DNA of 19,189 nucleotides from a virus (taxonomy: Duplodnaviria > Heunggongvirae > Uroviricota > Caudoviricetes), in the IMG/VR virus record IMGVR_UViG_2872180393_000006, positions 1-19,189 of that record; one strand, written 5' to 3'. The position numbers and the translations under genes were made by a program. Position 1 is the first letter of the stretch. Each line of letters begins with the position of its first letter. Below, piece by piece: positions 11,308 through 16,135 of the stretch. The notes beneath the pieces were generated by a model. The model ran no database searches. It was not told where the DNA came from and saw only the letters and a list, made by a program, of their open reading frames with translations.

Positions 11308-11541
11308 TGTCTTTCCTTCTGTGAATTTTTCTTTGCTATTTAACCGTGATACGACTTAATTTAGGCTTAAACACCTTACATTTACAAGGTACTCCTGTGG
11401 GGGGCCTGCCACGGAGCGTGGCAGGAGTGAGTGATGAGGAAGAATTAAAGCAACCTATTGTGACAGGCAGCGATAACAGTAAATCACAGGAAGCATAATC
11501 ATGGCAAAACCGTAAGCGCCCCGAGAAGTACGTAGCGTAAG

Positions 11542-12806
11542 TGAGGTAGCCTGAGTTTAACGGACACTCCTTCCTGAAATAGAATGGCATCAGAAGGAGC
11601 TAATAATGAGCAGAAAAACCCAACGTTACTCTAAAGAGTTCAAAGCCGAAGCTGTCAGAACGGTTCTTGAAAATCAACTTTCGATCAGTGAAGGCGCTTC
11701 CCGATTATCCCTTCCTGAAGGCACTTTAGGACAATGGGTTACCGCCGCCAGAAAAGGGCTCGGTACTCCTGGTTCCCGCACGGTGGCTGAACTGGAATCT
11801 GAAATTCTGCAACTGCGTAAGGCGTTAAATGAAGCTCGCTTTGAGCGAGATATATTAAAAAAAAGCAACAGCGTATTTTGCACAGGAGTCGCTGAAAAAT
11901 ACGCGTTAATCGAACAATGGCGACAACAATTTCCCATTGAAGCGATGTGTCAGGTATTTGGTGTATCCAGGAGCGGTTATTACAACCGGGTACAGCATGA
12001 ACCCTCAGACAGAAAACAAAGTGATGAGCGGCTAAAACTGGAGATTAAGGTGGCACATATCCGCACTCGCGAAACATATGGAACCCGGCGGCTCCAGACG
12101 GAGCTGGCAGAGAATGGCATCATCGTTGGTCGTGACCGACTGGCACGTCTTCGTAAGGAGCTAAGGCTACGCTGTAAGCAGAAACGCAAGTTCAGAGCGA
12201 CTACGAACCCGAACCACAATCTGCCAGTTGCGCCAAATCTGCTGAACCAGACGTTCGCTCCTACAGCACCAAATCAGGTCTGGGTGGCGGACCTGACGTA
12301 TGTTGCCACACAGGAGGGATGGTTGTACCTCGCTGGCATCAAAGATGTTTATACGTGCGAAATTGTCGGCTACGCCATGGGAGAGCGCATGACAAAAGAG
12401 CTGACAGGTAAAGCCCTGTTTATGGCGCTCAGGAGCCAGCGCCCACCTGCCGGGCTAATCCACCACTCTGATCGAGGTTCACAGTACTGCGCATACGATT
12501 ACCGGGTCATACAGGAGCAGTTTGGTCTGAAAACATCAATGTCGCGTAAAGGTAACTGTTACGACAACGCTCCGATGGAAAGCTTCTGGGGAACGCTGAA
12601 AAATGAGAGCCTGAGCCACTATCGTTTTAATAACCGGGATGAAGCCATCTCAGTAATACGGGAATACATTGAGATTTTCTACAATCGTCAGCGTCGTCAC
12701 TCTCGTCTGGGGAATATCTCCCCGGCAGCCTTCAGGGAAAAATATCATCAGATGGCTGCTTAAAAAAAGAACAAATGGTAGTGTCCGCTATTGCCAGTAC
12801 ACCTCA
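11542..12806 (+). mobile_element. IS600 (IS3 family), copy B, 1265 bp, divergent from copies A and C
   Basis: Same termini as the other copies. It has several amino-acid differences and an A8 run at 11857..11864 instead of A7. Confidence 0.9.
11606..12763 (+). CDS. IS600 transposase, orfA and orfB fused in-frame (385 aa) by one extra A in the slippery run
   Basis: The ORF track shows a single 385-aa ORF reading ...ERDILKKSNSVFCTGVAEKYALIEQW...MCQVFGV..., which is the sequence expected for the frameshifted OrfAB product. Confidence 0.85.
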   Translation: MSRKTQRYSKEFKAEAVRTVLENQLSISEGASRLSLPEGTLGQWVTAARKGLGTPGSRTVAELESEILQLRKALNEARFERDILKKSNSVFCTGVAEKYALIEQWRQQFPIEAMCQVFGVSRSGYYNRVQHEPSDRKQSDERLKLEIKVAHIRTRETYGTRRLQTELAENGIIVGRDRLARLRKELRLRCKQKRKFRATTNPNHNLPVAPNLLNQTFAPTAPNQVWVADLTYVATQEGWLYLAGIKDVYTCEIVGYAMGERMTKELTGKALFMALRSQRPPAGLIHHSDRGSQYCAYDYRVIQEQFGLKTSMSRKGNCYDNAPMESFWGTLKNESLSHYRFNNRDEAISVIREYIEIFYNRQRRHSRLGNISPAAFREKYHQMAA

Positions 12807-13200
12807 ACCCGCCGCCGCTGAAATGCGCTTTCCGGTAAACGGCCTGGACTGCATCATCATGCGCATCAATTGCCGTACTCAACGCTTCCTGCGCCGCCAG
12901 TAATGCACGGCGTTCCAGGGTATCGAAGATGCAGAGTCGGTGACGCAGCTCGCGCGGAAGAATTGCCAGAACCGCAGGGATCAGTTTCTGAATTTTTTCC
13001 CTTTGCGCTTTCGTTTCACCTTTCAACCAACGGTGATAGATATTCTGCTGATTGTTCCAGTCCTTGCCTGGTACAAGGGGCAATTCGCCGCCCCCCTGGC
13101 GCAGATATTCTTCAGTAATTGCGTTAGCGACCCACGCCTGCCCTTTTTCGGCTGCCAGGGCTAACAACACTGATTCGATGTGCTCATGCCTGATTTTCAT
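12807..13200 (-). CDS. YdaT-like prophage protein, 3'-truncated by IS600 copy B
   Basis: ORF 12760..13200; the native sequence ends at ...KAHFSGGG and the last 15 codons are IS-derived. The start overlaps the stop of the upstream Cro-like gene (ATGA), as in Rac ydaS-ydaT. Confidence 0.55.
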
Positions 13201-13439
13201 GAATCAACCGCTCCTATGCTGTTTTCGCTATGCTTACCGTCTGGGGGGAATACATCGTCAAGTCCACAATGAGCGCCAAGCCGATTAAGGGTAGAAACAA
13301 TTTTTCTGCACTCCTCTAGTCCAGGGGTACGAAAATTTGCTTCGTAATTTGCCAGTCGGCTTTGTATCCACCCTAACTGAACAGCAAGTTGTCTTTGAGA
13401 CAGCCCAAGCTGTTTTCGATATGTTGAAATTTTGTTCAT
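13197..13439 (-). CDS. Cro/DicC-like HTH (XRE-family) regulator, divergent from the repressor gene
   Basis: 80-aa ORF with an HTH (LGLSQRQLAVQLGWIQSRLANYE) and a GGAGG SD 7 nt upstream. Divergent placement next to the repressor-like gene is typical of an immunity switch. Confidence 0.6.
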   Translation of the reverse strand: MNKISTYRKQLGLSQRQLAVQLGWIQSRLANYEANFRTPGLEECRKIVSTLNRLGAHCGLDDVFPPDGKHSENSIGAVDS

Positions 13440-13467
13440 TGAAAACCTCCGATGACAATTTTAAACA

Positions 13468-13524
13468 CACCTTGTGTTATATGGTTAAACTGTTTTGTGT
13501 TTTATGTAAATCACGATTCGTGAT
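13468..13524. promoter_or_regulatory. Immunity-region operator/promoter segment with two palindromes
   Basis: AACACA-cct-TGTGTT at 13474..13488 and ATCACGA-t-TCGTGAT at 13510..13524, within the 96-bp divergent intergenic region. Confidence 0.45.
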
Positions 13525-13535
13525 AAAAGGATGCA

Positions 13536-13955
13536 ATGGAAAAAGAAAACGAAAAAATTGCCGCTAGTAGGCTCAATGACAAAATTGCAATGCGTCTTAA
13601 AGAGCGCAGGCAGAAGCTTGGTTTATCTCAAGGAAAACTTGCTGAAATCTGCGGATGGACGCAATCGCGTATAGGTAACTATGAGGCGGGCAGCAGAAAT
13701 GTTGGAGTACATGACGCTGTCGTATTGGGAAAGGCACTTGGCATATCTCCTCCTGAGCTCCTCTTTGGAGAACAGGAATCTTCTGAATTGTGGTTAAATG
13801 AATCCCAACGAAAACTTCTTGAGTTGTTTAACCAGCTACCGGGCTCAGAACAACAACGAATGATTGAGCTATTTGAAGTCCGGCTAAAAGAAATCGATGA
13901 GTATGTAGAAAAATATTTGAGAGGCAGGATTAAAGATAATCCCCCACCGGAATAA
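13536..13955 (+). CDS. DicA-like prophage repressor (N-terminal HTH_XRE, helical C-terminus, no S24 peptidase domain)
   Basis: 139-aa ORF with AAGGA SD. The HTH (LGLSQGKLAEICGWTQSRIGNYEAG) and the C-terminal LLELFNQLPGSEQQ parallel the DicA architecture (LLELFNALPESEQ as recalled). Confidence 0.7.
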   Translation: MEKENEKIAASRLNDKIAMRLKERRQKLGLSQGKLAEICGWTQSRIGNYEAGSRNVGVHDAVVLGKALGISPPELLFGEQESSELWLNESQRKLLELFNQLPGSEQQRMIELFEVRLKEIDEYVEKYLRGRIKDNPPPE

Positions 13956-13985
13956 TGATCTTGCTATCACAGTAATATGCCAATC

Positions 13986-14009
13986 AGCCCGCTATCAGCG
14001 GGCTTTTTT
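13986..14009 (+). terminator. Rho-independent terminator after the repressor gene
   Basis: AGCCCGCT-atc-AGCGGGCT perfect 8-bp stem followed by TTTTTT. Confidence 0.6.
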
Positions 14010-14051
14010 GTAGCATCATCATATGACACCCACCATAAAACACATTGCGTG

Positions 14052-14080
14052 TTGACACAAGAAAACAATTTGTGTTTAAT
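14052..14080 (+). promoter_or_regulatory. Candidate sigma-70 promoter of the dicB operon with an embedded operator-like inverted repeat
   Basis: TTGACA (14052..14057), 17-bp spacer, TTTAAT (14075..14080). The spacer carries ACACAA...TTGTGT, the same half-sites as the immunity-region palindrome. Confidence 0.5.
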
Positions 14081-14260
14081 AAGCATATCCAAACAACGCC
14101 CCACCAGAGAACGGCAGGACAATACCTCGAGTTATCCAGTCACTGAACAGGGCTAAGTAGCCAGCCTGAGGCATACGAACATGACGGCAGTTGTTGATTG
14201 ATACAAAGCGCAGTAGATAAAACGTTCCGCCACCCGGCGTTAAGGGGAAATGGGGTCAAC

Positions 14261-14416
14261 ATGAATACTATCGATCTTGGCAACAACGAATCTCTGGTAT
14301 GTGGTGTGTTTCCCAATCAAGACGGCACATTCACCGCCATGACGTATACCAAAAGCAAAACGTTTAAAACCGAAGCTGGCGCACGTCGTTGGTTGGGAAG
14401 ACATTCAGGTGAGTAA
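14261..14416 (+). CDS. ydfA: YdfA-like small protein (51 aa), first gene of the dicB operon
   Basis: MNTIDLGNNESLVCGVFPNQDGTFTAMTYTKSKTFKTEAGARRWLGRHSGE. The track ORF 14198..14416 begins at a TTG; the internal ATG at 14261 gives the 51-aa length recalled for K-12 YdfA. Confidence 0.7.
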   Translation: MNTIDLGNNESLVCGVFPNQDGTFTAMTYTKSKTFKTEAGARRWLGRHSGE

Positions 14417-14417
14417 A

Positions 14418-14621
14418 ATGAACGAGACAGAATTAAAACACGTTATCGCTCTACTCCCAGAAGATGCAAAACGCCTCCAGCAACTGGAGCCAAATGCAGG
14501 CACTGGGGCACGCATCTGGCTGGCTAAAGAAGCGCTGGAATCTGGCGATTATGATAGCGAAGAAGCCTTCTACAAAGCAGAAGGCCGTGCAGGATATTCA
14601 CCGGGTCTTGGCGGGGTATAA
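14418..14621 (+). CDS. ydfB: YdfB-like small protein
   Basis: MNETELKHVIALLPEDAKRLQQLEPNAGTGARIWLAKEALES...; the ATG lies 1 nt after the ydfA stop. The C-terminal tail overlaps the convergent gene and may be longer than in K-12. Confidence 0.6.
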   Translation: MNETELKHVIALLPEDAKRLQQLEPNAGTGARIWLAKEALESGDYDSEEAFYKAEGRAGYSPGLGGV

Positions 14622-14894
14622 ATACCATGCGCATTGACTGAATTCACAAACAAAAACAGACGCGCGATACCCGGATAGTCGGTCTGCATAGTCAGATATC
14701 TGGCTGCGAATTTGATAAATATCACCGCCCTTTTCGGAAACATAAGTTCCGTCCGGGAGTTGATTATACGAACCATCTCCATGGGGGATCGTTCTCCTGA
14801 ATCCTAGTGAGAGCATATATTTATGAAGCCCTTCGTAATCCTCTGGCTCAGCATTATATAGTTCTACTCTGGCGAGATACGTTGGCATATTCAT
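14598..14894 (-). CDS. Hypothetical protein (98 aa), convergent to the dicB operon at the position K-12 has ydfC
   Basis: Uninterrupted ORF with a strong SD (TAAGGAAA) 5 nt before the ATG and protein-like composition. No plus-strand ORF of ydfC size exists in 14621..15060. Confidence 0.55.
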   Translation of the reverse strand: MNMPTYLARVELYNAEPEDYEGLHKYMLSLGFRRTIPHGDGSYNQLPDGTYVSEKGGDIYQIRSQISDYADRLSGYRASVFVCEFSQCAWYLYPAKTR

Positions 14895-15065: not shown

Positions 15066-15123
15066 TGTGTGAAGTACTAGTTGGCGGCATCGGTTTAATT
15101 GCTGGCTGATGTCCGCCCTTTTT
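15066..15123 (+). ncRNA. dicF: DicF-like sRNA (Qin-type cell-division inhibitor RNA), variant
   Basis: The terminator stem-loop GGCGGCATC...GATGTCCGCC plus TTTTT and the following AAAGTGAATTTTGTGATG.GGTGAATGCGGCT.AGCGCACGCGGAAC match the 3' half and downstream region of K-12 dicF as recalled. It sits at the correct operon position, between the ydfB side and dicB. The 5' part differs from K-12. Confidence 0.55.
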
Positions 15124-15289: not shown

Positions 15290-16135
15290 ATGTTGAATGT
15301 AGCTATTGAAAACCAGAACGGGTGGAATTATAGTGCACCTGCACCTCATAAAACGGGTGCCGGGATTGCTACCCCGAAGTCATTCACGGCGCATAACCGC
15401 GCTCAGGCGGTTTTTTTATGCGTAATGCACAGCCACATTCAAATTATGGTGGGGCGTGCGGGGCAGTCGCAAGACTGGCCGGGTTCCGTGATGACCGGTT
15501 GTAGCAACCCTGTACGTCTCACCACCCATGAGATTGCTACCTCCGGTGGTGAGTTAATCAAATTCATCGCGGAGGCTGCCATCATGGCTACTACCCTTTC
15601 TCACCCTTGTGTAACCGTAGAAAACGGTCGCGCTGTCACTACGTCTGTTGCGGTTGCAGAGTTCTTCCACAAACGACACGACAATGTGTTACGTGCCATC
15701 GCAAATATTGAATGCTCAGATAAATTTACTGCCCTCAATTTTGAGGCGAGCGAATACACCGACTCAACCGGGCGCAAACTCCCAATGTACCAAATCACCA
15801 AAAACGGCTTCGTTTTCCTGGTTATGGGATTCACTGGCAAAAAAGCCGCTGCATTCAAAGAAGCCTACATTGCTGAGTTCGACCGCATGGAGGCCGAACT
15901 GCGCCAGAATAACACCCCACCTGCTGACAAGATGATTCCGGGTGATGGTCGCACTCTGGTTGTTCACTTCGACAAATTCGGCAATGTCGAATTCACCGAA
16001 ACCGTTCCTGATGGCGCACTGGTCTGTAGCCTGGAGACTTTCCGGTTTTATCTGGAAAAACAGGGATGGACTCTTGTTAACCGGGGCGCAATTAAAAATA
16101 TGACTGTGGAACAATTACTCAAAATTCATTGTTGA
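15290..16135 (+). CDS. Phage regulatory protein Rha family; the Rha domain starts near residue 100, so the start may instead be the ATG at 15584
   Basis: VTTSVAVAEFFHKRHDNVLRAI...FTALNFEASEYTDSTGRKLPMYQITKNGFVFLVMGFTGKKAAAFKEAYIAEFDRMEAEL is a classic Phage_pRha signature. ATG 15290 has an AGGAAAGAG SD and ATG 15584 has a GGAGG SD; the N-terminal 98 codons have no recognisable domain. Confidence 0.6.
   Translation: MLNVAIENQNGWNYSAPAPHKTGAGIATPKSFTAHNRAQAVFLCVMHSHIQIMVGRAGQSQDWPGSVMTGCSNPVRLTTHEIATSGGELIKFIAEAAIMATTLSHPCVTVENGRAVTTSVAVAEFFHKRHDNVLRAIANIECSDKFTALNFEASEYTDSTGRKLPMYQITKNGFVFLVMGFTGKKAAAFKEAYIAEFDRMEAELRQNNTPPADKMIPGDGRTLVVHFDKFGNVEFTETVPDGALVCSLETFRFYLEKQGWTLVNRGAIKNMTVEQLLKIHC

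Follow-up and report, generated by a model that had tools for sequence, protein, structure and literature searches.

A DicA-like repressor with predicted operators at its own switch and at the ydfA promoter of a defective lambdoid prophage

Introduction

Can a single DicA-like repressor govern both its own switch and the operon that carries dicF and dicB? The question is raised by a stretch of prophage DNA of 19,189 nucleotides, the whole of which was analysed and is referred to here as the window. A preliminary description had noticed similar ACACA and TGTGT half-sites between the divergent repressor and Cro-like genes and within a promoter upstream of ydfA, and proposed that one repressor acts at both places. 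On re-reading the 19-kb window, all of the strings reported earlier were recovered at their positions. The recurrent unit, however, is other than the one first proposed: it is a 15-bp palindrome, A(A/T)CAC-N5-GTG(A/T)T. Our comparisons make it probable that we are dealing with the immunity region of a defective lambdoid prophage of the Qin/Rac-like sort, which has OR and OL operators of classical type and an immunity specificity unlike that of K-12 Qin. The features on which this reading is built are collected in Table 1.

Table 1. Genes, predicted operators, promoters and RNA elements of the immunity region and the downstream operon.
Feature	Position in window	Strand	Remarks
YdaT-family (CII-like) gene, downstream of Cro-like gene	12760..13200	-	Pfam YdaT_toxin 8.5e-11; PHROG 163 CII-like activator 1.7e-36
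Cro-like gene, 80 aa, HTH_3	13197..13439	-	Pfam HTH_3 6.7e-10; divergent from repressor gene
Candidate PR for Cro-like gene	13458..13488	-	Read from sequence and haplotype comparison; inferred
OR1, perfect palindrome AACACAcctTGTGTT	13464..13478	.	18.3 bits with relatives' matrix
OR2-like site AAACTGTTTTGTGTT	13487..13501	.	Right arm alone conserved; centre 23 bp from OR1 and OR3
OR3, perfect palindrome ATCACGAtTCGTGAT	13510..13524	.	16.7 bits; 12 nt upstream of repressor ATG
Repressor gene, 139 aa	13536..13955	+	N-terminal HTH_3, C-terminal DicA-type helical domain
Intrinsic terminator-like hairpin and T-run	13986..14010	+	8-bp stem with 6 GC pairs, then TTTTTT
OL1, AACACATTGCGTGTT	14039..14053	.	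19.0 bits, top score in window
PL-type promoter (dicBp equivalent)	14052..14080	+	TTGACA (14052-14057), 17-bp spacer, TTTAAT (14075-14080)
OL2, AAAACAATTTGTGTT	14062..14076	.	16.3 bits; fills spacer, reaches 2 nt into TTTAAT
Conserved leader of PL transcript	14084..14260	+	About 99% identical where immunity region is 84% identical and downstream genes differ
ydfA (DUF1391), first gene past promoter	14261..14416	+	Pfam DUF1391 5.8e-29
DicF-like RNA and terminator hairpin	15075..15118	+	Rfam DicF 29.3 bits, under gathering score 48
dicB, 62 aa	16146..16334	+	Pfam DicB 3.8e-40

Results

Proteins of the immunity region

By sequence, the 139-aa repressor is a full-length homologue of DicA and falls in the short, DicA-type subclass. 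Its alignment with K-12 DicA spans 129 aa at 29% identity (E = 2e-15) and takes in the C-terminal LLELFNxLPxSEQ segment. Pfam gives HTH families only for this protein, with no peptidase S24 or LexA-type autocleavage domain, so that induction would probably proceed through an antirepressor or by spontaneous switching, as for DicA. A PDB sequence search returned generic HTH_XRE domains only (Orf20, C.AhdI, 434, lambda and P22) and no DicA-type structure. Its residues 12-80 are 58% identical to the DNA-binding domain of the cI protein of phage mEp213, whereas its C-terminus aligns with DicA and not with mEp213 cI.

The divergent Cro-like protein is 55% identical to mEp213 Cro over its full length, and BLASTP produced no alignment between it and DicC. 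It is also 45% identical to the helix-turn-helix region of the repressor, and the recognition helices of the two proteins are nearly the same (QSRLANYE in the Cro-like protein, QSRIGNYE in the repressor), which suggests that both probably read the same sites. The YdaT-family gene that follows has lost about nine native residues at its C-terminal end, which are replaced because an IS element abuts the gene at about 12807; only residues 1-131 are 98% identical to an intact 140-aa copy. The window as a whole is rich in IS elements, and no complete E. coli genome covers at least 80% of it.

Three phased sites between the repressor and Cro-like genes

Within the 96 bp that separate the divergent genes, sites recur three times at a step of 23 bp, with centres at 13471, 13494 (a right arm alone) and 13517. 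The first, OR1, is the AACACA-cct-TGTGTT palindrome that the preliminary description had placed between the divergent genes, and it does lie there, between the Cro-like start at 13439 on the minus strand and the repressor start at 13536. OR1 sits within the spacer of the candidate PR and reaches 2 nt into its possible -10 box TTTAAA, and its arms are invariant in 25 haplotypes, with variation confined to the central positions 13470-13472. Relative to TT(A/G)ACC-17-TTTAAA on the opposite strand, it has the same geometry as OL2 has at the downstream promoter. The -10 box of PR may be this TTTAAA (13465-13460, 17-bp spacer) or TAAAAT (13463-13458, 19-bp spacer).

The middle site is OR2-like. A direct repeat, TTGTGTTWTATG, occurs at 13472 and 13495, and across haplotypes positions 13493-13503 are invariant while the left arm is variable; the relatives likewise show a half-degenerate middle site in the switch. 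At OR3, variation is found only at the central base, 13517, and there are positional equivalents in Citrobacter (AACACGTAACGTGGT), Enterobacter (GCCACAAAGCGTGGT) and mEp213 (ACCACGGAATGTGAT).

OR3 had been put forward earlier as a possible site of its own for the Cro-like protein. The palindrome is present as described and perfect in the window, and lambda Cro prefers the operator closest to the repressor gene, which is the position that OR3 holds. Nevertheless it fits AWCAC-N5-GTGWT, keeps the 23-bp register, scores 16.7 bits with the matrix shared by the other sites and has equivalents in all relatives, and the recognition helix of the Cro-like protein is almost the same as that of the repressor. 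These data argue against a separate Cro-type site. By analogy with lambda and 434, the Cro-like protein most likely binds the same sites as the repressor with a different order of preference.

Two sites around the promoter upstream of ydfA

Beyond the repressor gene, and separated from it by a terminator-like hairpin, two further sites are centred at 14046 and 14069, again 23 bp apart, on either side of a TTGACA -35 box. The last two bases of OL1 are the first two of this box (junction GTGTTGACA), and the junction GTGTTGAC(A/T) recurs in Citrobacter, Enterobacter, IMG/VR relatives and mEp213. In 41 haplotypes the arms of OL1 are invariant and its centre (14044-14048) is variable, while OL2 is highly variable in its centre (14067-14069) and changed in its arms in just two single haplotypes. 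With OL1 overlapping the -35 box and OL2 filling the spacer as far as the -10 box, bound repressor would exclude RNA polymerase. A third site in register was sought near 14023 or 14092 and nothing convincing was found; ATCATCATATGACAC matches 6 of 10 arm positions.

The promoter itself, 180 bp upstream of ydfA, had been called near-consensus. Its TTGACA, 17-bp spacer and TTTAAT are all present, and the -10 box matches the consensus at 5 of 6 positions; however, it has T in place of A at -11, a position at which the A is near-invariant in sigma-70 promoters. A sigma-70 promoter scan made no call at the ydfA promoter, which was missed because of that T, and gave no clean PR either. An alternative -10 box, TAATAA, lies at 14077-14082 and would require a 19-bp spacer. 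Positions 14070-14082 are invariant in the 41 haplotypes. The relatives are split on spacing (TATAAT at 19 bp in Enterobacter, TAATCT at 17 bp in K-12), so from sequence comparison the identity of the -10 box, TTTAAT or TAATAA, is uncertain.

Within this promoter the preliminary description had seen a different operator, ACACAA-N9-TTGTGT. The string does occur, at 14055-14075, and is perfect, as would suit an arrangement in which the promoter operator is this single N9 palindrome and ATCACGAtTCGTGAT is a distinct, Cro-specific site. Yet its left arm (14055-14060) varies at 5 of 6 positions in close relatives, with 14058 changed from C to T in 20 of the 41 haplotypes, and reads ACACGA in one locus (L009); this arm is absent from the Citrobacter, Enterobacter and mEp213 promoters, in which the two N5-spaced 15-mers are conserved instead. 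We therefore rejected the N9 palindrome as the operator and regard the arrangement built on it and on ATCACGAtTCGTGAT as very unlikely. The two 15-bp sites OL1 and OL2 are the candidates that we retain.

Statistical support for the paired site

A search for the half-sites across the prophage, as suggested earlier, was informative only in part. Alone, the hexamer AACACA shows no enrichment in the window (10 copies against 11 expected), so single half-sites tell us little. Pairs are enriched: only four places in 19 kb fit AWCAC-N5-GTGWT with no more than one mismatch, each of them within the two regulatory regions, and the switch palindrome with N3 spacing and at most two mismatches has exactly three matches (13464, 14039 and 14062). 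When the 305-bp gap from the repressor stop to the ydfA start was shuffled with dinucleotides preserved, at least two sites matching the seed AACAC-N5-GTGTT with at most one mismatch were seen in 1 of 20,000 shuffles; at least three seed sites anywhere in the window were seen in 2.75% of shuffles. With a matrix trained exclusively on sites of mEp213, Citrobacter, Enterobacter and Raoultella, the four full sites of the window come out first to fourth (16.3-19.0 bits, next best 10.5), although the training sites were filtered for palindromes after the window motif was known and the test is thus not fully independent.

Variation among near-identical loci

A total of 67 near-identical loci yielded 25 distinct haplotypes of the gap and 41 of the promoter region. 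Within the operator arms 2 of 40 positions are variable, each in a single haplotype, compared with 53 of 135 other non-coding positions (Fisher p = 1.2e-5, in a test that counts positions rather than independent events, the haplotypes being related). Few positions vary more than the centres of OR1, OR3, OL1 and OL2.

Comparison of loci also bears on what the promoter belongs to. Between immunity variants of 84-95% identity, homology rises again to about 99% directly after the -10 box, from 14084, whatever genes follow. Among the retrieved loci with the immunity type of the window, 47 continue into ydfA and 27 into other genes, Rac-type ydaF-sieB-kilR operons among them. Since homology resumes just past the -10 box and the genes downstream differ, the sequence comparison indicates that the operator-bearing promoter is part of the immunity module and moves with the repressor rather than with the downstream genes.

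Operator arms follow the recognition helix

Repressor homologues of 57-68% identity were found in Citrobacter, Enterobacter and Raoultella genomes, in Citrobacter phage Chris1 and in IMG/VR contigs. In each of these loci RACAC-N5-GTGTY stands at homologous places: the gap has three phased copies, and a further two or three surround a TTGAC(A/T) box beyond the repressor terminator, always with the GTGTTGAC junction. The helix QSRIGNYE, as in E. coli, Citrobacter, Raoultella and mEp213, pairs with AACAC arms both at the switch and at the downstream promoter. In the E. coli variant loci L008, L082 and L090 the helix SGSSRIANYE replaces TQSRIGNYE, and their predicted operators are [CT]TCAC-N5-GTGA[GT] in the gap and around the TTGACA promoter, a form that includes CTCAC-N5-GTGAG at both places. 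An Enterobacter helix variant, ATASRVGNYE, pairs with GACAC/AACAC.

Of the computational evidence, this covariation at both locations argues most strongly that one protein reads the two, and it speaks for the earlier proposal that a single DicA-like repressor acts at the switch and at the ydfA promoter, as DicA does in Qin (PMC10448788, PMC3441716).

It also bears on whether the ACACA/TGTGT strings might be bound by a factor of the host, such as a CRP-like protein, instead of by the prophage repressor. CRP-like proteins read TGTGA-N6-TCACA, which the half-sites superficially resemble. Their orientation and spacing are wrong for CRP, however, with CAC, N5 and GTG here; the sites are restricted to the two promoters of the immunity module; and arms that change together with the repressor helix in the three variant loci would not be expected of a host-factor site. 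We consider this explanation extremely improbable, and take the prophage repressor to be the probable ligand.

The operon and the state of the circuit in this copy

The transcript from the PL-type promoter would begin with a leader that has sequence blocks in common with the Citrobacter and Enterobacter relatives. No Rfam family was found in the leader (14084-14260), and folding of its alignment gave no covariation support for a structure. The preliminary description had assigned both dicF and dicB to the operon. ydfA and dicB are indeed present, whereas the DicF-like element is diverged (29.3 bits against a gathering score of 48) and lacks the 5' part of K-12 DicF in the alignment, with its terminator at 15086-15113. 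A module of about 1 kb with isrK, C4 RNA and a Rha gene lies between this element and dicB, and has its own promoter-like site (15306-15334) and an intrinsic terminator. There are thus two intrinsic terminators between the PL-type promoter and dicB, and together with the inserted module they mean that induction of dicB from this promoter is not assured. Whether dicB is co-transcribed from the ydfA promoter in this copy is uncertain.

It could be, then, that the sites are real ancestral operators while the circuit is dead in this decayed copy, at the ydfA promoter or on the Cro side, with dicB outside repressor control. A T at 13486, unique to the window, changes the -35 box of the candidate PR (13488-13483) from TTGACC, as in all 24 other haplotypes, to TTAACC. 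The IS element truncates ydaT and parts it from the replication genes, the -10 box of the ydfA promoter is without the A at -11, and the two terminators and the isrK/C4/Rha module with its promoter-like site stand ahead of dicB; the abundance of IS elements and the poor coverage of the window by complete genomes point the same way. Against this, many copies match the repressor, whose ORF is intact, at 97-100% identity, the four full operators and positions 14070-14082 are identical to those of most relatives, and TTTAAW is placed alike in PR and in promoters of the Citrobacter type, a recurrence that suggests a working form. On balance we think a dead circuit rather unlikely.

Discussion

A model for the switch

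We propose that a dimer of the 139-aa repressor recognises the 15-bp A(A/T)CAC-N5-GTG(A/T)T site. OR1 would lie over the promoter of the Cro-like gene and OR3 beside the start of the repressor gene, and dimers on OR1/OR2 and on OL1/OL2 would block the Cro-like/YdaT operon and the ydfA operon, respectively. The promoter so excluded would read into ydfA and, at least ancestrally, into DicF and dicB. Loss of the repressor would open both operons, after which the Cro-like protein would occupy the same sites.

About 150 complete E. coli genomes have this immunity type, O157:H7, O121, O145 and O103 strains among them, as do many IMG/VR prophage contigs. The operator map predicts which repressor silences the DicB/DicF-type cell-division inhibitor operon in those strains, and shows an operator-bearing promoter recombined onto different downstream genes, ydfA-dicB or the Rac-type kilR. 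Published O157:H7 'DicA' data (PMC6915034) are not directly applicable to this repressor, as the primers show a different allele. A search of the available paper collection for the operator strings of the window returned no match.

Comparison with known systems

For the Qin prophage of K-12, published work treats DicA as the counterpart of CI, dicCp of PR and dicBp of PL and places three operators in each of the two regions; deletion of dicA raises dicBp 22-fold (PMC10448788). Induction there proceeds through the antirepressor Rem or by DicC-dependent spontaneous switching and not through RecA (PMC10448788). DicA is an activator of its own gene and binds Oc, TTGTTAGTCATAACTAACAA, in the dicA-dicC gap, where the site overlaps the dicC -10 box (Yun et al. 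2012, PMC3441716); the original descriptions of DicA, DicC and dicBp (Bejar et al. 1986 and 1988) are taken here as cited in Ragunathan et al. 2023 (PMC10448788). The locus in the window resembles K-12 Qin in that its repressor is short and non-cleavable, a Cro-type gene diverges from it, and predicted operators lie in the gap and again at a promoter downstream of the repressor gene, one of the downstream pair upstream of or over the -35 box and the other in the spacer or -10 box. In Qin this promoter serves ydfA-ydfB/C-dicF-dicB; here it would read into ydfA and, at least ancestrally, into dicF and dicB. The locus differs in its predicted operator (AACAC-N5-GTGTT instead of Oc), in a Cro-like protein that is unrelated to DicC and is followed by a YdaT/CII-like gene, in a leader about 100 nt longer, in its diverged DicF and in the 1-kb isrK/C4/Rha module between DicF and dicB. 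The K-12 dicBp region itself shows an equivalent geometry with a motif of its own, TTAGT-N4-RCTAA.

The active lambdoid phage mEp213 (NC_019720) shares the QSRIGNYE helix and, beyond the similarity of its cI DNA-binding domain (58%) and Cro (55%) to the proteins of the window, has predicted operators of the same motif, three in OR and three in OL, 22-24 bp apart, and an identical OL/-35 junction, CGTGTTGACA. Its cI, unlike the repressor of the window, has 213 aa, belongs to the LexA family and carries a C-terminal domain that can be cleaved; the PL of the phage reads into nutL and N. Judged by the helix, the paralogous Cro and AACAC-N5-GTGWT at both OR and OL, the window appears to carry an mEp213-type immunity specificity. 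One speculative extension, which we consider rather doubtful, is that the non-cleavable repressor shares its DNA-binding specificity with the RecA-cleavable cI proteins of active mEp213-type phages and could give the host SOS-proof immunity to them and, conversely, that Cro or cI of an infecting mEp213-type phage could act on the ydfA/dicB promoter. If true, domain swapping would here have preserved the operators and altered the route of induction.

The locus has the layout of lambda, 434 and P22: the repressor and cro genes diverge, three predicted operators follow one another at intervals of about 23 bp, and a second set lies over PL beyond the repressor gene. The repressor has an HTH_3-type domain, as do those of 434 and P22 (weak PDB matches). 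Should its mRNA be leaderless, OR2 and OR3 would be placed as at lambda PRM, at -42 and -19 relative to the start codon of the repressor. In contrast to these phages, the locus has no RecA-dependent cleavage domain in its repressor, only two clear OL sites, and predicted 15-bp operators with 5-bp arms.

The cryptic prophage CP-933P, with its PaaR2/YdaS/YdaT switch and regulated PL (PMC8630535), offers a further parallel in its CII-like YdaT, non-cleavable repressor, extra regulated PL-type promoter and middle operators of one half-site. However, its repressor family and GTTTAGTAA-repeat operators are unrelated to those of the window, and its Cro analogue is YdaS (COG4197) rather than an HTH_3 paralogue of the repressor domain. 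The window thus holds a heteroimmune member of the known DicA/dicBp arrangement, whose core logic is already established in kind. That logic is textbook lambdoid regulation, known for DicA, and the gain from the present analysis is one of annotation rather than concept.

Repressor domains and PR-side substitutions

In an alignment of the repressor of the window (13536-13955) with those of related loci (L003-L009), we found that the C-terminal segment RLKEIDEYVEKYLRGR is near-invariant even though the DNA-binding domains diverge widely. The repressor from Phytobacter (locus L007) has an overall identity of 45%, and the window repressor has its DNA-binding domain in common with the LexA-type cI of the lambdoid phage mEp213. 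From these sequence comparisons, the DNA-binding and C-terminal domains seem to be shuffled independently of each other.

Three substitutions in the gap between the repressor and Cro-like genes, at 13486, 13489 and 13526, are found in the window alone, as each of the other haplotypes (24/24) differs there. With T at 13486, the likely -35 element of PR, the candidate minus-strand promoter of the Cro-like gene, reads TTAACC instead of TTGACC, a change that may lower transcription on the Cro side in this copy.

IS elements and chromosomal setting

An IS3-family element abuts ydaT in the window. The match of YdaT to an intact 140-aa copy ends at residue 131 with the remainder being IS-derived sequence, and the replication genes usually found after ydaT have been displaced. 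Coverage of the window reached 80% in no complete E. coli genome. IS600 and IS2 are present in the best of the partial matches, and the T3SS effector ipaHb is also listed in at least one of them. These data suggest that the window derives from an IS-rich, Shigella/EIEC-like chromosome in which the prophage is fragmented.

Leader and gene content of the supposed ydfA-dicB operon

Features of the window upstream of and within the supposed ydfA-dicB operon
Feature	Position	Strand	Remarks
IS3-family element	11336-12810		abuts ydaT 3' end
Transposase ORF of IS3-family element	11606-12763		385 aa
PL transcript leader	14084-14260		
70-aa ORF	14409-14621	plus	PHROG 30817
98-aa ORF	14598-14894	minus	PHROG 8894
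DicF-like element	15075-15118		Rfam 29.3 bits, under gathering score of 48 bits
isrK/C4/Rha module	15290-16135		between DicF-like element and dicB
Promoter-like site TTGAAA-17-TATAGT	15306-15334		upstream of isrK
isrK	15341-15417		64.8 bits
C4 antisense RNA	15442-15529		79 bits

The leader of the transcript from PL, the promoter upstream of ydfA, is ~99% conserved across immunity variants and also across differing downstream gene sets. The blocks AGTAGC, GGCATACGAA, CGCAGYAG and AACGTTCCGCC are common to the window and its Citrobacter and Enterobacter relatives; neither an Rfam match nor covariation was found for the leader. Inside the supposed operon, the 98-aa ORF lies antisense to it and shares sequence with the 70-aa ORF at the 3' end of the latter.

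Both isrK and the C4 antisense RNA fall within the 5' third of a 281-aa ORF, for which the annotation given elsewhere is Rha family protein, and the Pfam 'Phage_ASH' match to residues 14-104 of this ORF lies on the same DNA as these RNA genes.

Comparison with the Qin prophage of K-12

Both the central GGCGG...CCGCC and the terminator hairpin are retained in the DicF-like element, but the 5' segment of K-12 DicF is missing from it. In contrast to the window, K-12 has no isrK/C4/Rha module between DicF and dicB, and the leader in K-12 Qin is ~100 nt shorter.
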